Source: a virus (taxonomy: Duplodnaviria > Caudoviricetes). Taken from it: a stretch of DNA of 64,000 nucleotides. This document shows, piece after piece, positions 22,881-64,000 of the stretch. The stretch's first letter is position 1. Each line of letters starts with the position of its first letter. Made by a program: the position numbers and the translations under genes. The notes beneath the pieces are model-generated. The model was given only the letters and a program-made list of their open reading frames with translations, was not told the origin of the DNA and did no database searches. Where the stretch lies: IMG/VR virus record IMGVR_UViG_3300028048_000001, positions 210,242-274,241 of that record. One strand, 5' to 3'.

Positions 22881-23849
22881 TTATTCATTAAATATATTTT
22901 TAAAATTAGCTTTAACTTTACCAGTATTCACATTACAATAAATCATTGTTGTGTCTAATTTAGAGTGACCTAAAAGTTCTTTAATTTGTTCAATTGGCAT
23001 ACCTTTATCCATAGCATGAGTTGCCATAGTTCGTCTAAATCTGTGAGGATGAACATTATCAACTCCGCTTTTTAAACCTAATTCTTTTAGGATAAGTTGT
23101 GCTGCTCTTATTGTTAATTTCTTTTTTGGTTTATCTAGATGACTAAATAGTGGTTCTTCTGGTTGAGCGTTTCTCTCATTTAAATAAATTTTTAACCATT
23201 TTATACATATATTAGATAAGTAAACTATTCGTTCTTTATGACCTTTACCAAAAACTACAACTTCTCCTTCTGAGAAGTCTATATCTTGAACATATAAACT
23301 TAAAGCTTCTGATATTCTACATCCAGTAGAATAAAGAAATTCTAGAAATGCTCTATCTCTGCTATTATTACATACTGATCTTAATAAAGTTATATCTTCT
23401 TCAGTAAAAGCTTTTTTAACTTTCTTTTCAACTATTATTTTCTCTATTCTATGACATGGATTTCTTTCTATGAATTCTTCATTTACTAGAAAATCATAGA
23501 AAGCTGATATAAATCGTATCATAGTTTGAGTTGTACTTGCTTGTAAATTATGTTCTTGTACATAATATGATAAATAATTTTTAATATCAGATGTAGTTAA
23601 TTCGGTTAAATTTCTGTTTGGATAAAATTTTCCTAATTTTCTTGCTTCTGATGTATAATGTAATATAGAAGATTGAGATAAACCAACCAGTTTTTTATTT
23701 TGTATGAATCTGTCTATCAATTCTTCATTTGGTAGAGAGTTTCTTGTAGTTTTGAGAATGATTTCTAATACATTTTTGAGTTTAGCCAGTTGATATTCGT
23801 TTAAATCTGGCTCCATTAATTTTAGAATCATTTCTACATTACTTACCAT
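22881..23849 (-). CDS. Tyrosine recombinase (XerC/D-like, N-terminal SAM-like domain)
   Basis: Intact catalytic set: STGCRISE, GKGHKER, HPHRFRRT, LLGHSKLDTTMIY. Confidence 0.95.
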   Translation of the reverse strand: MVSNVEMILKLMEPDLNEYQLAKLKNVLEIILKTTRNSLPNEELIDRFIQNKKLVGLSQSSILHYTSEARKLGKFYPNRNLTELTTSDIKNYLSYYVQEHNLQASTTQTMIRFISAFYDFLVNEEFIERNPCHRIEKIIVEKKVKKAFTEEDITLLRSVCNNSRDRAFLEFLYSTGCRISEALSLYVQDIDFSEGEVVVFGKGHKERIVYLSNICIKWLKIYLNERNAQPEEPLFSHLDKPKKKLTIRAAQLILKELGLKSGVDNVHPHRFRRTMATHAMDKGMPIEQIKELLGHSKLDTTMIYCNVNTGKVKANFKNIFNE

Positions 23850-52077: not shown

Positions 52078-52485
52078 TTAATCCTCTTCTATTAACTTTA
52101 ATTTTTTAAAAGTATTTTCTAATAATTCTATGGTTATTGGTTTCATTATTACTTCATCAACACCAAATTCTATAGCTTTATTTTTTTCATTATGCCCATC
52201 TAATGAAGTTACAACTATTATTATACTTTTTTTCTTTATATCTAAATTTTTTCTTTCATATTTTCTTATATTTTCTAAAGCATGAAATCCACTACTTATT
52301 GGCATAATTACATCTAATAATATTACATCGTAAGGATCTTTTTCTATATAAGCCTTAATTGCCAAATTACTGGCTTCTAATCCGTTTTTTGCAAGATCTA
52401 TTTTATTAATTTCTTTAAATTTTGATAATATATTTTTAGTAACCATTCTTTGAATATCTGAATCTTCTACTAATAATACTTTCAT
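52078..52485 (-). CDS. Stand-alone response regulator receiver (CheY-like)
   Basis: MKVLLVEDS, ILLDVIMP..SG, VVTS, IMKP; start reassigned to 52485. Confidence 0.9.
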   Translation of the reverse strand: MKVLLVEDSDIQRMVTKNILSKFKEINKIDLAKNGLEASNLAIKAYIEKDPYDVILLDVIMPISSGFHALENIRKYERKNLDIKKKSIIIVVTSLDGHNEKNKAIEFGVDEVIMKPITIELLENTFKKLKLIEED

Positions 52486-52585
52486 ATATACTTCTTTCTT
52501 AATTAAATATTTTATATTAATATCAAGTTTTAAAAAATAAAAAAAGAAACCCATGTGGGTTTCTTTTAAAATACAAACCATATGA

Positions 52586-53593
52586 TTATTCAATATAATC
52601 AGCAAAAATCTCTTTAAGCAGATTATATCGATAAGATACTACATCTTTTGTCGTAGTACCTCTCTTATATTTGTTAAACGTTTCTTCTATTTCTTTTGCA
52701 TTTTTCTTACTAAAATAATTATTAACAGCTTCGCAGAAACCGGTCATATTTTTTTCAGAAACCAGTAATGAAATAGCAAGAACATAGCAAAAATTCTTGC
52801 CCACATCGCTAGTGTCGTTTATCTTTTTTGTTTTACTAATTCTACGGATCAAGGTCTTGATGTTGTTAAGATCTTTTTCCGTTATATTGACCACCTCCCT
52901 GTTAATTGTCGGTGTTGTAATGTCAATAACCCCATTATTTTTAATAATAAGAATCGCTCTTATTATCTGAATAATGTCGTTATTATACTTATTAATCATT
53001 GGTTCACTCATGAATGTTCTGAAAAATTCAGAATACTCATCACAGATCGATGTTAACAAGTCTAAACAACGAGGATTATACTTGAAGAAAATAATCCTCG
53101 TACTGTCAATTGCAACCATTGCAGTTCCGTTGTTAAGTCGATTGAACAGTTCGCACATACCTGTATCATCAAGATCTTCATACCTCACATAGAATACACT
53201 GTTTGTGAGGAGATTCTTTTTTAACTCTTCAGGAAGATCTTTGAAGTATTTATTCTTCAGAGGAAATCTTCTTGACTGCTTTTTGTTATCAATAAAGGTT
53301 ACCTCAAGATCATAAGTGATCTTGAATTCATTATTGATAAATGCGATTATAGTACTTAACCTTTGCTTTCCATCAATGACATAGTCTATGCCATTCATGG
53401 ATACGATCATAATCATATATGGCACAAACTGTATTAACAGTGAATGGATAAACAAGCATTTCTGCTTTGTTGTCCACACTGTTCTTCTCTGCATGGGGAT
53501 ATCAAGAGAAAGTTCTTCATTTTCCACATCCTCCACCAGGTCACGTACATTCTTACTCACATCTTTGTCATAGTAACTCTTTCTTTTTTTCAT
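52586..53593 (-). CDS. DUF262 (ParB-like/GmrS-type) domain protein
   Basis: MQR..VW, FIHSLL, VIDGKQRL, LFNRLNNG. Confidence 0.85.
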   Translation of the reverse strand: MKKRKSYYDKDVSKNVRDLVEDVENEELSLDIPMQRRTVWTTKQKCLFIHSLLIQFVPYMIMIVSMNGIDYVIDGKQRLSTIIAFINNEFKITYDLEVTFIDNKKQSRRFPLKNKYFKDLPEELKKNLLTNSVFYVRYEDLDDTGMCELFNRLNNGTAMVAIDSTRIIFFKYNPRCLDLLTSICDEYSEFFRTFMSEPMINKYNNDIIQIIRAILIIKNNGVIDITTPTINREVVNITEKDLNNIKTLIRRISKTKKINDTSDVGKNFCYVLAISLLVSEKNMTGFCEAVNNYFSKKNAKEIEETFNKYKRGTTTKDVVSYRYNLLKEIFADYIE

Positions 53594-53823: not shown

Positions 53824-55056
53824 TCATACTCCCAATATAGAATCTATAATATTATTATAAGAAGAATTATTATTTTCTGTAATTTCAACAGGTTTAGCCA
53901 ATAAAGTTTCTAATTCTTCTTTAGCTACAGTCATGAAAGCTTGAGCAAAATCATTATCTGATAATAATTTATCTTTAAATCCTTTCTGAGTAAATCTCAT
54001 ATCAGGATATCCTCTAAGATTACAATAAGCTCCTTTCATTTCTATAGCACCGTTTGATTTAAGATACATAAATAAAGATAATATTTCATCAAACCCACTA
54101 TTATAACTAAATACCATAGGAACAGATCTTCCAGATGCATTTGTTCTTGATTTAATATAAGTAAAATCTACAATTTTGCCATATATACCTAAATCTTTCT
54201 CAGGTTTAAGTACAGTACCATCATCTACTCTTATCATATTATTAGCTAAGTATAATGCTGCTTTTCCACCAGGTAATGATTCATTCTGTTTAAGAAATCC
54301 TACCTGTGATTTTGTATGTACAAAAGCATTAATTTCAATTTTATCTGTAATATGATTAATTACAAATAAAATAATATTAGCTGCTTTAAGCTTAGGGACA
54401 ATACGTTTAAAAACAGCAGTATTGGTTTTAGCCATTGCTGTTGCAGTCATTTGTCCACCAAGTTCTCCACCAACATCATCTACAACTTTTTCTGGTGTTA
54501 ACATAGCTAATGAATCAAGAATATATACAGTAGGAATAAGTTTATATATCTCATTTCCTCTAGAATCTAAAAGTCCAGTATTATATTCATAATCATCTCT
54601 ATGAGATAATTTTTCATTATAAATATAATCTATTCTTTCAAAGAAATTTTCTGCAGATACACTTTGATTTCTATATATTAATTTAGAATCGATATCTTCT
54701 GGACCAAATTTAGTAAGAATTTCTCTTCTGGCAGCATTAGATCCACCTTCAATATCATCATAAAATATAGCAGCTTGAGGAAATCTTCTAACAATATTTG
54801 CTGCTATTTGAAGAGCTATTGTTGTTTTACCACTCGACGGCCTTCCTACAAAAGTTGTACTAGATCCATCTGTAATTCCAACGGCATTGTACCAAAATTC
54901 TTCTTCATTTGGTTTTTTAACATGAACTTTATATCCATTTAAATAATCAAGAGGAAGAAATCCTGTAGAATACATAACATCAGCAACAGCTTCATTCATT
55001 CTTGGGTCTTTATTTTTTGCCATTTGTGCTCTAAATCTATCAGCTAATAAACTCAT
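53824..55056 (-). CDS. recA: RecA/UvsX-like recombinase
   Basis: STGFLPLD, GRPSSGKTT, DIEG, ILDSLA, INHI, PGGKA; start MSLL after an AAGGAGG SD. Confidence 0.88.
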   Translation of the reverse strand: MSLLADRFRAQMAKNKDPRMNEAVADVMYSTGFLPLDYLNGYKVHVKKPNEEEFWYNAVGITDGSSTTFVGRPSSGKTTIALQIAANIVRRFPQAAIFYDDIEGGSNAARREILTKFGPEDIDSKLIYRNQSVSAENFFERIDYIYNEKLSHRDDYEYNTGLLDSRGNEIYKLIPTVYILDSLAMLTPEKVVDDVGGELGGQMTATAMAKTNTAVFKRIVPKLKAANIILFVINHITDKIEINAFVHTKSQVGFLKQNESLPGGKAALYLANNMIRVDDGTVLKPEKDLGIYGKIVDFTYIKSRTNASGRSVPMVFSYNSGFDEILSLFMYLKSNGAIEMKGAYCNLRGYPDMRFTQKGFKDKLLSDNDFAQAFMTVAKEELETLLAKPVEITENNNSSYNNIIDSILGV

Positions 55057-55195
55057 ATAAACCTCCTTAATTATTATATATTTTATCAAAATTATAATAT
55101 ATTAATATTTTTAAATTTGGTATTTATATGTTTTTCAAAAAATAAAAATAGAAAAACAGGATAGAGAGACAATCTCTCTATCCTTTAATATTTTA

Positions 55196-58282: not shown

Positions 58283-58366
58283 AATAATTCCTCCTATATT
58301 AATTACTGAGATGTTTTAGAAAAAGAGTCAGTAGAGAATAGTTCTCTACTGACTTTATTAAAATAT

Positions 58367-59401
58367 TTATACACTTAATGTTAAAGTACCATTAGAATAT
58401 GATGCTTTAATACCACCTAACGCATTAGAAGAAGCAGCAGGTAAAGTATAGGTATATTTATTAGCAGATGCTTGAATACTATTTAATTTAATTTTATCTG
58501 CAGCCGACATTAATCCATTAGTAGAAGTAGTAACAGCAGCATAAGTAGTATTGTTATCGACATTATACTTAGTACCAGCAGCCCATCCAGCACCAGTAAG
58601 AACGTATGCAGTAGTTGCATAGTTAGTATTACCAGATTTAGCAGCAGGAGCCAGTCCAGCAGCAGCAGATGTAAAGTTAGCATAAGTAGTATTAGTATCA
58701 GTATTATACTTATCTCCAGCTTTCCATCCAGCACCAGTTAATACATAAGCAGAACTTAAATAACTAGTACTACCATTCTTTGCAGCAGGAGCTAATCCAG
58801 CAGCAGATGATGTAAATGTACTATATGTACCACCAGCAGCTCCCCAAGATCCGTCACCTAATAAGCATTTAGTACTATCTCCATTTAAACTAGGCATAAA
58901 TCCAGCAGATGTTCTTGTTGCTACATTATGAGTATGATTTATATCTGCTTTATCATTAACAGCTGTAACTAAATTAGTTAATGTATCATTCATCTGCTTA
59001 ACTAACAAAGAACTAGGAACATGAGTACTATCTGATATTTGGGTATTAGATATAAGATCTGTACCATCTGAAGCTTTTAATGTGGATGTATCATGTGTAT
59101 GATCTTTATCAGATTTATTATCTTTTAAATCACTAATAGCTTCTCCTATTGAACTATATCCAACAGAACCTATATCTAAATCACCTATTATTTTATATAA
59201 ATATCTTATATTCTTAAACATAGAAGATATTTTAGTAAATATAGAACCATTGGTCTCAGAAGAAGCTAATTTAGTAACATTTGTCCAATTACTAGCAGAA
59301 GAATCATCCGTATCATTAGATATTCCAGTAAATATAGCATCTTCAGATTGGAGAATATCATATGTAGTTGTTCCAATTTGTATTTTATCAACTTGTGCCA
59401 T
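58367..59401 (-). CDS. Tail fibre protein
   Basis: HTH metal-binding fibre motifs, AAGL.PA, NTTY repeats, GLMSAADKIKL, LGGIK. Confidence 0.8.
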   Translation of the reverse strand: MAQVDKIQIGTTTYDILQSEDAIFTGISNDTDDSSASNWTNVTKLASSETNGSIFTKISSMFKNIRYLYKIIGDLDIGSVGYSSIGEAISDLKDNKSDKDHTHDTSTLKASDGTDLISNTQISDSTHVPSSLLVKQMNDTLTNLVTAVNDKADINHTHNVATRTSAGFMPSLNGDSTKCLLGDGSWGAAGGTYSTFTSSAAGLAPAAKNGSTSYLSSAYVLTGAGWKAGDKYNTDTNTTYANFTSAAAGLAPAAKSGNTNYATTAYVLTGAGWAAGTKYNVDNNTTYAAVTTSTNGLMSAADKIKLNSIQASANKYTYTLPAASSNALGGIKASYSNGTLTLSV

Positions 59402-59424
59402 ATACTATATATCCTCCTTTCTAT

Positions 59425-60432
59425 TTAAACTCTAACTGATAAAGGATTAAGAGTTAAAGTACCATTAGAATATACTGCTTTAACTCCAGAAGTATTAAGA
59501 GCATAAGTAGTATTAGTATCGACATTATACTTAGTACCAGCAGCCCATCCAGCACCAGTAAGAACGTATGCAGTAGTTGCACAGTTAGTATTACCAGATT
59601 TAGCAACAGGAACAAGACCATTAGCTGCAGATGTAAAGTTAGCATAAGTAGTATTAGCAGGTACTGACCATGTTTTATCTCCACGAAGGTAAGCACCTTG
59701 TTTACCAGCAGCAGGAGCAGGAACTAATCCATTAGTGCCAGCAGCTGAAGCTGTAGCAGCTCCCATTACACCATAAGTAGTATTAGTATCAGTATTATAC
59801 TTAGTACCAGCAGCCCATCCAGCACCAGTAAGAACGTATGCAGTAGTAGCATAGTTAGTAGTACCATTCTTTGCAGCTGGAGTTAATCCAGCAGCAGCAG
59901 ATGTAAAGTTAGCATAAGTAGTATTGTTATCAGGAGGTGTAGTCCAGCTACCATTACCATTCAAATACTGTGTAGCTGTACCTGATAAAGTTGGGGCTAA
60001 TCCTGGAGCAGCTGTAGAAACAGTAGCATAAGTAGATCCGGCTGTCCCCCATGTTCCATCACCTAATAAACATTTATCAGAAGATCCATCTAATGCAGGA
60101 AGAAATCCTGCAGCAGAAGATGTTGCTATAGGGTGTGTATGATCACTATTAGATTTTCCACTAGAAAGAGCAGAAATTGCTGCAGTAATAGTATTACCTA
60201 CTCCAGATATATCTGTAGTACCTAATTTACTATATAAATATCTTATATTCTTAAACATATTAGATATTTTAGTAAATATAGAACCATTAGTTTCTCCTGT
60301 AGCTAATACAGCTACATCTGTCCATGAACTAGGAGAAGCAGAATCTTCACTAGTACCATCAAATGTTCCTGTAGAAGAAGGAGTTATATCATATGTAGTT
60401 TCTCCAGCTTGTATTTTATTTATATTAGACAT
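59425..60432 (-). CDS. Tail fibre protein (paralog of 58367-59401)
   Basis: Shared ETNGSIFTKIS.MFKNIRYLY and AYVLTGAGWAAGTKYN blocks; GLVPAPAAGKQ..LRGD.TW. Confidence 0.8.
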   Translation of the reverse strand: MSNINKIQAGETTYDITPSSTGTFDGTSEDSASPSSWTDVAVLATGETNGSIFTKISNMFKNIRYLYSKLGTTDISGVGNTITAAISALSSGKSNSDHTHPIATSSAAGFLPALDGSSDKCLLGDGTWGTAGSTYATVSTAAPGLAPTLSGTATQYLNGNGSWTTPPDNNTTYANFTSAAAGLTPAAKNGTTNYATTAYVLTGAGWAAGTKYNTDTNTTYGVMGAATASAAGTNGLVPAPAAGKQGAYLRGDKTWSVPANTTYANFTSAANGLVPVAKSGNTNCATTAYVLTGAGWAAGTKYNVDTNTTYALNTSGVKAVYSNGTLTLNPLSVRV

Positions 60433-60482: not shown

Positions 60483-61184
60483 TTAGTAACTTGTAATTTT
60501 TGTTATTGTGCTTGGTTTTCCTTGACCATAATTATCATATTCTTCACCACCAGATTCACTAGTGTATGTTGTAGCTACTGCAAGATAGCAATTAGCATTT
60601 CTATTTGCTGTAGGTATTGTAATACTTCTAGTAGAATTACCTCTTAATGCAGCCCAGGCTATTACACACCATACTGCTCCATTACCTGTAAGAGAACTAA
60701 CTCCAGCTACATATAAAGGAACAGATCCATATGTTTCATATGTTTGTGTAGTTATAGTAATTTCAATAGTAGTTTTATTTGTAAGATTTACTTTATTATT
60801 AGTCATAAATTTTACATATCCTACAGAACATATAGGACTACCATCATCACTATCCCATGTAACGGTTCTCCAGCAGTCTGCAGATAATCCATTAGTAAGA
60901 CTAAAACTAGATTTCCTACCAGGATTAGTAGTACTCCAAGTTGGAGAACCTTTTATAAATTTATCAGCAGTATAGCATGCCCATCCATAATTTGAAGAAG
61001 AACCACCCCATCCTCCCATACCAGACGAATGTGTTCTTCCTGTAAAAGTAGAACTTGCATTTCCACCATTAAATATAACAAGTAAATCTGGAAATACTTG
61101 TGTACTTCCCCAAAGTACTTTAGTAATATTAGTACTACCCCATTTAACTGCTGTTACATTACTACTACCCCATTTAATAGCCAT
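60483..61184 (-). CDS. Putative fibre-tip adhesin/receptor-binding protein, cassette A1
   Basis: Start MAIKWG; triple (K/L)WG N-terminal repeat followed by a variable G/S/T/aromatic-rich domain. Confidence 0.65.
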   Translation of the reverse strand: MAIKWGSSNVTAVKWGSTNITKVLWGSTQVFPDLLVIFNGGNASSTFTGRTHSSGMGGWGGSSSNYGWACYTADKFIKGSPTWSTTNPGRKSSFSLTNGLSADCWRTVTWDSDDGSPICSVGYVKFMTNNKVNLTNKTTIEITITTQTYETYGSVPLYVAGVSSLTGNGAVWCVIAWAALRGNSTRSITIPTANRNANCYLAVATTYTSESGGEEYDNYGQGKPSTITKITSY

Positions 61185-61224
61185 ATAAAAAATATCTTCT
61201 TTACATAGCACATACTAGCGTCAT
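61182..61224 (-). repeat. Conserved cassette leader with core AGCGTCAT (copy 1, hybrid site)
   Basis: CATATAAAAAATATCTTCTTTACATAGCACATACTAGCGTCAT, repeated at 62661-62703 and 63411-63452. Confidence 0.9.
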
Positions 61225-61516
61225 TTAACGAAGTCAATGCATTATTCATCTATTTAACCAATAAAAAACTAGAAATATGGTCATTATAGCTTACTTGACT
61301 CGTTATAATGAGGCTATTACCATTGCCATCTTTCAAATCGGAATCTGTATGAATATGCTTAGTAGTAGCTTTTCCAGAATCTAATTTAGCTACTGTAGTT
61401 CAGGAAATAGCACTACCATCTGCTACATAACTAGATATAAAATTATTAGTGATATTAGCAAATGCAGTAATATCATAAGTGATCTAACCGACTTGAATTT
61501 TGTCAATTTGAGCTAT
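61217..61516 (-). pseudogene. Degenerate N-terminal fragment of a third tail fibre paralog
   Basis: (ATA)AQIDKIQVG*ITYDI...AIS*TTVAKL...SSFLLVK*MNNALTSLNDA aligns with 58367-59401; start codon lost, three stops, internal deletion; AAGGAGG SD retained. Confidence 0.85.
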
Positions 61517-61887
61517 ATAAAGAATCTTTCCTCCTTATATTTTTCTTAGATTATTGCTTAATTAAAAATATTATTCTCAGATTATTAAAATAGTATATTT
61601 GAGGATAACCAGACAACCTTTTATACTATAACTTATTTTCAATATACACTATTTAACAATTTAATATGCTAGGCTGAATTACTTTTAATGTTTAATATAT
61701 TCAGCCTAACACATTAAATTTAAATTAATAAGGAGACCAACAAAAATGGTTAAATAGGATATATTAACAAATAAGCAATAATCTGTAAATATATTGCGTT
61801 TAGTTTGGATAACCAATTTTAGAGTTTAAATATAGAATATATTAAACATAAAAAAGTAATATCCTTTATTTATAGCACAATATACTT

Positions 61888-61899
61888 TACTAAAAAGTT
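61888..61899 (-). promoter_or_regulatory. Late-type promoter candidate AACT-N6-TA
   Basis: AACTTTTTAGTA pointing toward cassette A1 and the fibre genes. Confidence 0.4.
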
Positions 61900-62001
61900 A
61901 TATTTTTATATATCTAAAATTTAAAATTAAATTTATCAATAACTTTTATTATTTATTTTTATGAATAAAAAATAAATAATAAATAAAAAATGATAAAAAT
62001 A

Positions 62002-62041
62002 ACTATCCTCAGATATATAAAAATAAGCATCTGAGGATAGT
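62002..62041 (-). terminator. Terminator-like hairpin downstream of the cassette array
   Basis: ACTATCCTCAGAT...ATCTGAGGATAGT (13-bp stem) followed by T-rich sequence on the minus strand. Confidence 0.7.
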
Positions 62042-62056
62042 ATTGAATATTTCTCA

Positions 62057-62084
62057 GACTTTTTCGTAAAAGCGTCATATAAAA
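62057..62084. repeat. Terminal hybrid site with core AGCGTCAT (62071-62078)
   Basis: GACTTTTTCGTAAA-AGCGTCAT-ATAAAA: right flank as in array junctions, left flank unique. Confidence 0.8.
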
Positions 62085-62663
62085 TTAAGAAAAATTTATA
62101 AAATTTATTTTTAAATGTGATGTAAACCAGAACCACGATCCCGCTCCTGAAGCTTTTGTTGTATTATAAGCAAAAAAAAACTTAAATTTTCCATCAGTAT
62201 TAGCATTTAAAACTTTTGATGTTAAAGTAAAAGATCCATTTTTTGGAATATCAAAATTAGTATAACCAGCTGTACCCCAATACCCACCAGTATTATAGGA
62301 AAAGTGTATTTCTATTTTTGGGTCTATTTTATTAATATCTCCTTTATCCCAATCTGTCATATTATGATATCCAGAAATTGTTATATATGAATATTTAGTA
62401 AAATCTCTTTCAGCATTATTAACTGGTACACCACTACTATATACAACATATCCAAGGTTATCTGGTGGAACACGTTCTGCATCTGAATATTCTGTGCTAA
62501 ATGGAGCACTATTAAAACAATTATATCCATTCAAAGGTGCAGTAGCAGTACTTCCATTATACCCATCAGGAAATACTATAGTTGAACCCCATTTAACACA
62601 TGTACAAGTATTAGTACCCCATTTAACTACTGTTACATTACTACTACCCCATTTAATTGCCAT
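62085..62663 (-). CDS. Putative adhesin cassette B1
   Basis: MAIKWG start, triple KWG repeat, type-B C-terminal domain. Confidence 0.7.
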   Translation of the reverse strand: MAIKWGSSNVTVVKWGTNTCTCVKWGSTIVFPDGYNGSTATAPLNGYNCFNSAPFSTEYSDAERVPPDNLGYVVYSSGVPVNNAERDFTKYSYITISGYHNMTDWDKGDINKIDPKIEIHFSYNTGGYWGTAGYTNFDIPKNGSFTLTSKVLNANTDGKFKFFFAYNTTKASGAGSWFWFTSHLKINFINFS

Positions 62664-62708
62664 ATAAAAAATATCTTCTTTACATAGCACATACTAGCGT
62701 CATATAAA

Positions 62709-63413
62709 TTAGTAATATGTAATTTTAGTTATTGTATTAGTACCATAAACATAATCAGCATTATCTGTTGAATTTCCTAATAATATTATAGCAAAATAAC
62801 AATTGGCATTTCTATTTGCTGTAGGTATTGTAAAAGATGCTGTAGATGTAGTATTTTTTGTTATACTAGATCTGACACACCAAGTAAATTTATTTGAACC
62901 TGTACTTGCCGTAGTTGTTATTCCTCCAACATATATTGGAGTATATCCATCATGTGCATTAGTTGATGATGTTAGTGTAATTTGAATAGTAGATCTATTT
63001 GTAAAGTCTATTTTATTATTTTTATACACAAATTTTGTTCTGCCACAATTATAACTCATATAGTCTCCACTAGAACTACCTTGATATAGATATCCTTCAC
63101 ATTTAGAATATATTCCGTTTGTAAGAGAAAAAGTTGCAAGATTTCCATGTTTTGATGTATATGGATTTGGTTCGTCCCAATATTTATAATTTGATACAAA
63201 GTAAGATGCTTCATAACAAAACCATTCATTAAGAGTTGGTCCAGAATCAAATATTTCTCCATTCATTCCAGTAAAATTAGATGAAGCATTACCTCCGTTA
63301 AATAAAGTTACTAAGTCTGGAAATACTTGTGTACTTCCCCAAAGTACTTTAGTAATATTAGTACTACCCCATTTAACCGCTGTTACATTACTATTACCCC
63401 ATTTAATAGCCAT
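62709..63413 (-). CDS. Putative adhesin cassette A2
   Basis: First 34 aa nearly identical to A1; the rest is diverged except blocks such as TIPTANRNANCY and TITKIT. Confidence 0.7.
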   Translation of the reverse strand: MAIKWGNSNVTAVKWGSTNITKVLWGSTQVFPDLVTLFNGGNASSNFTGMNGEIFDSGPTLNEWFCYEASYFVSNYKYWDEPNPYTSKHGNLATFSLTNGIYSKCEGYLYQGSSSGDYMSYNCGRTKFVYKNNKIDFTNRSTIQITLTSSTNAHDGYTPIYVGGITTTASTGSNKFTWCVRSSITKNTTSTASFTIPTANRNANCYFAIILLGNSTDNADYVYGTNTITKITYY

Positions 63414-63458
63414 ATAAAAATATCTTCTTTACATAGCACTTACTAGCGTCATATAAAA

Positions 63459-64000
63459 TTAAGAAAAATTCATAAAATTTATTTTTAAATGTGATGTAAA
63501 TCTGAACCATCCTGCATTGGCTGAAGCTTTTGATGTATTATAAGCAAAATAAAACTGAAATTTTCCATTAGTATCAGCATTTAAAACTTTTGATGTTAAA
63601 GTAAAAGATCCATTTTTTGGAATATCAAAATTAGTATAACCAGCTGTACCATGATAACCATTAACACTATATGTAAAGTCTATTTCTATTTTTGGGTCTA
63701 TTTTATTAATATCTCCATGATCCCAATCTGTCATATTATGATATCCAGAAATTGTTATATATGAATATTTAGTAAAATCTCTTTCAGCATTATTAACTAG
63801 TATACTATTACTATATACAACAAATCCAAGGTGATCTGGTTTAACATGTTCTGCATCTGAATATTCTGTGCTAAATGGAGCACTATTAAAACAATTATAT
63901 CCATTCAAAGGTGCAGTAGCAGTACTTCCATTATACCCATCAGGAAATACTATAGTTGAACCCCATTTAACACATGTACAAGTATTAGTACCCCATTTAA
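63459..64000 (-). CDS. Putative adhesin cassette B2 (5' end beyond the window)
   Basis: Near-copy of B1 with clustered substitutions; the frame stays open to the window edge through KWGTNTCTCVKWG. Confidence 0.75.
   Translation of the reverse strand, partial: KWGTNTCTCVKWGSTIVFPDGYNGSTATAPLNGYNCFNSAPFSTEYSDAEHVKPDHLGFVVYSNSILVNNAERDFTKYSYITISGYHNMTDWDHGDINKIDPKIEIDFTYSVNGYHGTAGYTNFDIPKNGSFTLTSKVLNADTNGKFQFYFAYNTSKASANAGWFRFTSHLKINFMNFS

Follow-up and report, generated by a model that had tools for sequence, protein, structure and literature searches.

A variable tandem array of probable fibre-tip genes joined by short conserved leaders in a rumen jumbo phage

Near one end of the sequenced genome of a giant (jumbo) phage from cattle rumen several short genes stand head to tail, all beginning with nearly the same codons and all preceded by the same short leader, and the question raised by this locus is how such an array changes: whether its units are cut out and reinserted at a short core sequence, as integron cassettes are, or whether they are duplicated, lost and re-sorted by general recombination. 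The DNA analysed, here called the window, comprises the last 64 kb (64,000 nucleotides) of the 274,241-bp virus record IMGVR_UViG_3300028048_000001 (26.6% G+C); coordinates are those of the window unless stated otherwise. An initial annotation of the window took the locus for a library of fibre-tip adhesin cassettes rearranged by excision and reintegration at the core. The reading favoured here, to which we assign a probability of about 0.55, is a hypervariable tandem array of paralogous fibre-tip genes, resembling the PeSL cassettes of T4-type phages and changed by homology-driven recombination.

In the direction of transcription (minus strand) the locus reads B2–A2–B1–solitary core–X–A1–fibre gene 1–fibre gene 2–terminator. 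The four cassette open reading frames (ORFs) are all intact and all located on the minus strand: B2 (type a, 192 aa; its 3' part at 63459..64000, the gene running past position 64000), A2 (type d, 234 aa; 62709..63413), B1 (type a, 192 aa; 62085..62663), and A1 (type b, 233 aa; 60483..61184). They code for proteins with divergent C-termini and the common N-terminus MAIKWG..(V/C)T.(V/I)KWG..(K/L)WGST.VFPD, the only four members of this family in the whole genome. Each cassette follows a leader of 39–43 nt that opens with the 8-bp core ATGACGCT, namely 61185..61224 for A1 (40 nt, core at 61217–61224), 62664..62703 for B1 (core at 62696–62703), and 63414..63452 for A2 (core at 63445–63452), and within the array the stop codon of one cassette lies 5–6 nt before the next core. 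The leader is better conserved among the units (86–100% identity) than the N-terminal 99 nt of the coding sequence (70–97%) or its C-terminal remainder (51–92%). The single orientation, the shared N-terminus, the spacing and the strong conservation of the leader were all described correctly at the outset. The core occurs in four copies against 0.25 expected and the 12-mer ATGACGCTAGTA in three against 0.17, every one on the minus strand, and an nhmmer search of the whole genome (274 kb) finds the leader at the four cassette starts only, which rules it out as a genome-wide promoter motif. The initial annotation also held that a unit consists of core, leader and ORF with nothing else. This fails between B1 and A1, where a segment of 846 bp, designated X (61225..62070, minus strand), lies behind a solitary core (62071..62078) that has no leader after it.

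The array continues beyond the window, as had been supposed: the B2 head, the fourth leader, a terminator hairpin and five tRNA genes are found at the start of the record (bases 1–1525). The 127-bp 'direct terminal repeat' (DTR), by which the record is marked as complete or circular, is an exact repeat common to B1 and B2 (record 1–127 = 274115–274241 = 272741–272867, the latter two being window 63874–64000 and 62500–62626), and it may show where the assembly broke within a repeat and not where the genome really ends. Because the same 127 bp are also present inside B1, the circular closure joining the terminator to B2 rests on an independent JGI contig, L023, which reads terminator, B2-like, A2-like and a-type cassette, the same array start. 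The tRNA genes just upstream of the array (Leu, Lys, Gln, Met, and Pro; record bases 362–1525) are separated in two places by unusually GC-rich spacers of ~290 and ~490 nt; tRNAs are the only Rfam matches in the region.

Relatives of the locus are carried by about 30 contigs, all from ruminant gut metagenomes, which were split at the core into units and assigned to six C-terminal cassette types, a (the B genes), d (A2), b (A1), c, e, and f, with T and T' standing for two different upstream terminators. No relative was found among cultured phages, in IMG/VR (by protein or by leader and X patterns), or in GTDB genomes. The arrays hold from one to six or more cassettes. The phage studied here has T–a–d–a–X–b–fibres; other arrays read T–X–a–a–d–b–b–c–fibres (L005/L006), T–a–X–b–e and onwards (L009), T–X–b–c–fibres (L010–L013), T–a–e–f–c–fibres with no X (L026), T–a–d–a–a and onwards (L023), d–a–d–a–b (L030), T'–X–e and onwards (L025), and T'–e and onwards (L028), in genomes whose flanks are 95–97% identical to those of this phage. 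Number and kind of cassettes thus vary between close relatives, but the arrays are largely collinear and not shuffled, the types following one another as (a, d), b, e, f and c. The same succession of a terminator, cassettes and fibre genes is kept in four further lineages (L035/36, L037, L039/L042, and L044), with an added tRNA gene in L039. The L039/L042 lineage, represented by one 62.7-kb contig, has two separate arrays, each with its own pair of fibre genes, one comprising X and three cassettes and the other six cassettes, and an HNH endonuclease gene lies between a tRNA gene and the second array. In L025 and L028 the array adjoins a module that corresponds to the ~58–66 kb region of the genome (L025:1–9118 against genome 58337–66397) and not the tRNA cluster, so that this strain either carries an array at a second locus or has undergone a large rearrangement.

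Where the changes can be resolved, they are homologous exchanges. The 262-aa gene of L036 consists of the 5' part of the 267-aa gene of L035 joined to the 3' part of its 262-aa gene, with a single switch point 145–215 nt into the unit and all informative sites in agreement on either side, except for one isolated site; the unequal crossover between L035 and L036 removed two cassettes. In the window itself B1 is a mosaic, with codons 7–13 of b/d type on an otherwise a-type body, and an a-type gene of L009 (a191) has yet another head. The resolvable changes of copy number are thus homologous unequal crossovers inside ORFs and not at the core; the crossovers that gave rise to chimeras lie in the common leader/N-terminal region. 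An array of static tandem paralogues, all expressed as a multivalent set of tips, would account for the collinear order and for the intactness of all cassette ORFs; the leader would then be conserved purely for expression, and differences between contigs would come from slow divergence and assembly artefacts. The fragility of the assemblies (the N gap in L007, the false DTR) fits such an explanation, as do, weakly, RNA-library contigs that cover cassettes on either side of X. However, genomes that are 95–99.8% identical in their flanks differ by whole units, identical variants recur in independent samples (L005/L006; L010–L013), the chimeras are clean, and k-mer mis-assembly cannot make junctions with 8–15 bp of shared sequence; we regard a static array as improbable.

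Under the favoured explanation, i.e. homology-driven change of a tandem array, the ~140 bp of near-identical leader and N-terminal coding sequence, repeated head to tail, would serve as the substrate of homologous recombination, and unequal crossover together with gene conversion would expand, contract and re-sort the array. The short core repeats that flank X would allow its precise loss and re-placement, along with neighbouring cassettes, and all the variants seen could come from duplication via leader-level homology and deletion between direct repeats of 8–15 bp. A candidate driver of the homologous exchanges is a RecA/UvsX-like recombinase of 421 aa encoded in the window (53824..55089, minus strand). 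A precedent comes from T4-type phages, in which indels and mini-circles arise at short promoter/terminator repeats and no dedicated recombinase is involved (PMC2839356, PMC4122927).

Segment X is flanked by two identical direct 8-mers, the solitary core (62071–62078) and the core of the A1 leader (61217–61224), and comprises, in the direction of transcription, a terminator hairpin (62002–62041), a late-promoter-like box AACT-N6-TA (~61888–61899), a second hairpin (61672–61706), a Shine-Dalgarno (SD) sequence (61530–61537), and a decayed gene similar to fibre gene 2 (61225–61518). Directly inside the 8-mers lie inverted repeats, TTTACGAA and TTCGTTAA, which match in 7 of 8 positions (39 of 20,000 random pairs reach this value, p about 0.002); in the distant lineage L042 their counterparts, TTAACGAAG and CTTCGTTAA, match in 9 of 9. 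X thus has terminal inverted repeats inside a direct repeat, as do miniature inverted-repeat transposable elements (MITEs) and elements derived from insertion sequences, in which the direct repeat is a target-site duplication. No transposase was identified, PF00589, PF00239, and PF00078 being the only families searched for. X is present in a single copy in the genome, and it was not found in the viral and genome collections searched (IMG/VR, GTDB).

Five copies of X from this clade have the same ends. Their first ~590 nt, with the terminator hairpin, an AT-rich stretch, the second hairpin and the SD sequence, are ~98% conserved, while the last ~250 nt form a gene in decay, with the start codon replaced by ATA in four copies out of five, TAG also in four out of five, one codon that reads TGA or TGG, and, in the L009 copy, a frameshift. 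Its homology to fibre gene 2 covers residues 1–144 of the latter and extends up to the last codon of X (E = 1e-20). L042 shows the same layout, cassette–core–X–core and leader–cassette–cassette–fibres, with an intact X gene (124 aa) that continues through the core and the leader and ends where it overlaps the start of the next cassette in ATGA, an arrangement that by its sequence would be classical coupling. X is best explained as an old module with a gene that formerly extended across the following leader. The blocks kept between the lineages of X include the box, which is of the AR9 late-promoter type (AACT/AACA-N6-TA), and several blocks of the 5' untranslated region, the best-conserved non-coding part being the solitary core with the next 35 nt. 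The box has 13 matches genome-wide, 7 of them intergenic, and its putative role as a promoter in X is a lead only. Between the box and the SD sequence of the X gene stretch ~370 nt (61540–61900, minus strand; L042:4740–5110) that have no match in Rfam and hold conserved blocks such as AGATTATTGCTTATTT, CTCAGCCTAGC, and ATAATCTGAG, with the word ATCTGAG present three times; the stretch may form a structured RNA leader at the 5' end or provide binding sites for proteins.

The ends of X are exact. L028 shows the precise empty site of L025, the two genomes being 99.8% identical, and X has at least five different left neighbours (T, T', two a-type tails, and a d cassette), all joined to it at the core. 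The d–X junction comes from a contig in public run X2 that joins position 62070 to 62696 with 13 shared nt and a side of 87 nt. It is the only joint used from the Logan contigs, which are short unitigs; most of their joints had sides of 21–23 nt in AT-rich sequence and were disregarded. The evidence from public runs, including RNA, consists of assembled contigs, and coverage gaps and RNA-run depths were left uninterpreted.

Several points weigh against homologous recombination as the full account. The events around X require crossovers within 8–15 bp of shared sequence, and yet they recur, as seen in the variety of its left neighbours, in the arrays that lack it and in the empty site; moreover, its terminal inverted repeats beside direct 8-mers and the conserved solitary core with the adjoining 35 nt resemble a recombinase site. 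Short-read assembly of repeats of this kind can also collapse copies, L007 having an N gap and the DTR of the record being an internal repeat, and promoter activity, coupling, location in the virion and receptor binding are predicted properties.

The direct 8-mers and inverted arms at the ends of X, its precise empty site and the variety of its left neighbours lend some weight to an integron-like site-specific system, which we consider a tentative possibility, in which a Xer-type or other enzyme would recombine the units at the core ATGACGCT; X, and possibly cassettes, would excise as circles and reintegrate at any core. Since X brings a terminator, a promoter-like box and the only SD sequence of the array, its position would then decide which tip gene is expressed together with the fibres. 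The junction of an X circle predicted for L042, CTTCGTTAA-ATGACGCT-TTAACGAAG, has a 9-8-9 layout like that of lox, FRT or dif, and since an excised X would carry such a site, exchange at the core by an enzyme is a realistic possibility. The solitary core and the left arm are kept across lineages without a coding or leader role, the core is the only part of the leader that is invariant across all lineages, and the genome codes for one intact Xer-like tyrosine recombinase (322 aa; 22881..23849, minus strand), the only site-specific recombinase found in it.

This recombinase gene, however, lies 37 kb from the array, and its product falls below the cut-offs of the models for XerC/XerD and for integron integrases (TIGR02249, 106.8 bits against 265; PRK15417, 72.6 against 435), its best match being a Xer-type model (NF040815, 218 bits against 220); it may simply resolve genome dimers. 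The core sites in the leaders lack convincing inverted arms, all cores are direct with no inverse copy in or near any unit, and the leader hairpin does not take in the core. Since the right arm of X codes for protein (LTSL) and has its homologue in fibre gene 2, the inverted repeat may be partly due to chance, and the T-rich tails before the core vary by indels. X exists in one copy, and the layout cassette–core–X–core and leader–cassette, being common to distant lineages, argues that its position is ancient and not the result of a new insertion. Of the initial proposal of rearrangement at the core, what stands is that the core is the exact boundary of X, while the resolvable cassette changes are homologous and lie inside ORFs. 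The largely collinear order, the lack of an attC-like inverse core and of an adjacent integrase, and the low integrase score speak against excision and reintegration of cassettes, an unproven process that the observed cassette changes do not require. The bolder version, an integron-like system in a lytic jumbo phage with X as a mobile driver of expression among translationally locked, silent tip genes, appears unlikely.

Diversification by a diversity-generating retroelement (DGR) or by DNA inversion of the Gin/Cin/Rci type could be suggested by B1 and B2, whose 50 differing positions are clustered in patches and mostly non-synonymous (dN/dS 1.57 in the C-terminal part). Nevertheless, the genome encodes no reverse transcriptase (PF00078) and no serine recombinase, the substitutions show no adenine bias, and the cores are all direct, so that this route, set aside already in the initial annotation, is effectively refuted.

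In the four further lineages named above nearly every cassette is preceded by a leader (35–46 nt), all but one of these leaders open with (T)ATGACGCTA, and most carry TATGTA at the fixed position +17. The GC-rich word of 9–10 nt and the TATGTA box are kept between lineages; the remainder of the leader has fully diverged. Among the words enriched before the other genes of the phage, AAGGAGG-type sites rank highest, but the leaders of this clade contain no SD sequence. The start codon is paired in the leader fold with a probability of ~1.00, placing the cassettes in the top 1–2% of 251 genes. With all lineages taken together, cassettes also exceed other genes in the degree of structure between -14 and +3 (median 0.67 against 0.47, Mann-Whitney p = 3e-8), and they still do so when this clade is left out (p = 2e-5). 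In L037 and L044 it is the nucleotides just past the core that pair with the SD sequence. The ATG of the core opens a short upstream ORF (uORF), which codes for MTLxxxM followed by a stop in some lineages (MTLVCAM in the A1 leader), overlaps the main start in L039 and is fused in frame in L035. Leader variants do not strictly follow the cassette type.

The leader is read here, from these features, as a putative expression module acting by translational coupling or as a translational lock. Because it has no SD sequence, contains a short uORF and folds into a hairpin that buries the start codon or the SD sequence, cassette translation is probably coupled to translation of the upstream gene. The leader probably also holds a promoter, since a terminator directly abuts the first leader in this clade as well as in L037, L039, and L042 (L035/36 show a T-run only). 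A scan for sigma-70 promoters gave fewer matches than the shuffled expectation and no sigma-70 consensus. Two further interpretations of the leader were dropped: a likeness to the late promoters of SPO1 (CGTTAGA...GATATT), as the -10-like part is not kept in other lineages, and a dif-like site with TATGTAAA as an arm, as the crossover would lie outside the 8-mer.

Among the cassette proteins, which an exhaustive profile search places in 45 clusters at 50% identity, only the first ~33 residues are common, M(A/T)(I/L)KWGSTxVTAVKWGSTxCTAVYWGSTKVFPD, and they are followed by unrelated domains of 100–200 aa rich in Ser, Thr, Asn, and Tyr. The proteins are 190–235 aa in size, and the 33-residue module consists of three KWGSTxVTxV beta-repeats. 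Neither Pfam nor PHROGs yielded a match for the cassettes. The AlphaFold2 model of A1 (mean confidence, pLDDT, 80.6) has short beta-strands N-terminally and a jelly-roll C-terminally, and its best structural matches, all weak (TM 0.3–0.45), are carbohydrate-binding modules (CBMs), the 'cleaved adhesin' domains of gingipains, ligand-binding domains of ephrin receptors, and phage tail-fibre ends; the model of B1 was poor (pLDDT 58) and was excluded from use. It is reasonable to regard the cassettes, as the initial annotation did, as a library of whole-gene fibre-tip adhesins that probably bind receptors, with a conserved 33-aa module, variable jelly-roll, CBM-like domains and a content that differs between close relatives. 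The N-terminal KWG module would dock the protein to the fibres encoded just downstream, and the fast-evolving jelly-roll, CBM-like domain, as modelled, may bind the receptor.

Two fibre-like genes do follow the array, as had been stated. Fibre gene 1 (335 aa; 59425..60432, minus strand) has a strong SD sequence and lies directly downstream of A1, a synteny kept in all relatives, and fibre gene 2 (344 aa; 58367..59401, minus strand), the last of the operon, is followed by a terminator (58326–58354). Their designation as tail fibres is tentative: the product of fibre gene 2 matches the phi29 head-fibre family (PF11133, Phage_head_fibr, E 1.5e-6) and also PTR, and the two may code for tail or for head fibres. 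Both contain internal repeats of ~141 nt (window 58500–60140, families D1 and D5), and the same repeat is present in several further genes at 142–148 kb of the genome, which indicates a larger family of fibre paralogues. Elsewhere in the window, on the minus strand, a gene for a CheY-like receiver-domain protein (52078–52605), recognised by the motif MKVLLVEDSD..., overlaps the end of that for a GmrSD_N-domain protein (52586–53593; Pfam E = 1.7e-14).

The locus represents a compact, modular set of tips that probably bind receptors. Since genomes that are nearly identical differ in its content, it can serve as a marker of host switching at the strain level in uncultured rumen jumbo phages, and it probably helps to determine such switching. 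It carries the notion of short regulatory repeats as points of exchange, described in T4-type phages, over to structural genes and to another group of phages. It also raises the questions of the role of the invariant 10-mer (T)ATGACGCTA and of a Xer-like recombinase acting on the lox-like site of an excised X, and its SD-less leaders with buried start codons offer a clean system for the study of coupled translation in a Gram-positive-type phage.

Compared with known systems, the locus is not an integron, not a shufflon or Gin-type switch (there are no inverted sites, and whole genes are involved), and not a DGR. With integrons it shares single-gene units arranged head to tail in one orientation, a conserved boundary word, variable content, and the precise presence or absence of X. 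It differs in the lack of an adjacent IntI-type integrase, of an attC palindrome with an inverse core and of attI, in the N-terminal coding module shared by the cassettes, and in the collinear order and homologous changes.

Phages with multiple receptor-binding proteins reportedly include Klebsiella phage PhiK64-1, CBA120 with its tailspikes TSP1–4, and G7C with gp63.1 and gp66. The common features are receptor-binding proteins encoded side by side, conserved N-terminal attachment modules, and swappable C-terminal domains; here, however, the proteins are small (~200 aa) and uniform in layout, share the same SD-less leader, and vary in number between near-identical genomes. The start-associated sequences (SAS) of Cluster K mycobacteriophages (Pope et al. 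2011) are said to be dispersed genome-wide and to include the ribosome-binding region. Like the leader, they are short conserved sequences at a fixed place upstream of the start codons of a subset of genes, with a presumed role in the control of translation, but the element described here is confined to one array of paralogues and marks the boundaries of units. X resembles MITEs and the small Xer-using integrative elements (IMEX) in its terminal inverted repeats, which lie directly within direct repeats of 8 bp, and in the existence of a precise empty site. It differs from them in being single-copy, always at the same 8-mer and in the same kind of position in distant lineages, and in carrying a promoter-like box and a fibre-like gene whose frame runs into the flank.

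Of the known systems, the promoter-early stem-loop (PeSL) 'mobile regulatory cassette' found in T4-type phages comes closest; its authors themselves liken it to integrons (Arbiol et al. 2010, PMC2839356; Comeau et al. 2014, PMC4122927). In both a short conserved sequence with a stem-loop, regulatory in PeSLs and probably so here, precedes each small gene, and indels and replacements between close relatives are bounded by repeats; the exchange of PeSLs is ascribed to the general recombination of the phage, with no dedicated integrase. PeSLs, however, flank unrelated ORFans in hyperplastic regions, whereas here a single family of paralogous fibre-tip genes is located next to the fibre genes, and the leader has no recognisable sigma-70 promoter or SD sequence and hides the start codon. 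The array is further distinguished by the GC-rich word of 9–10 nt, invariant across lineages, by the X module, and by its occurrence in a Gram-positive-type jumbo phage of the rumen.

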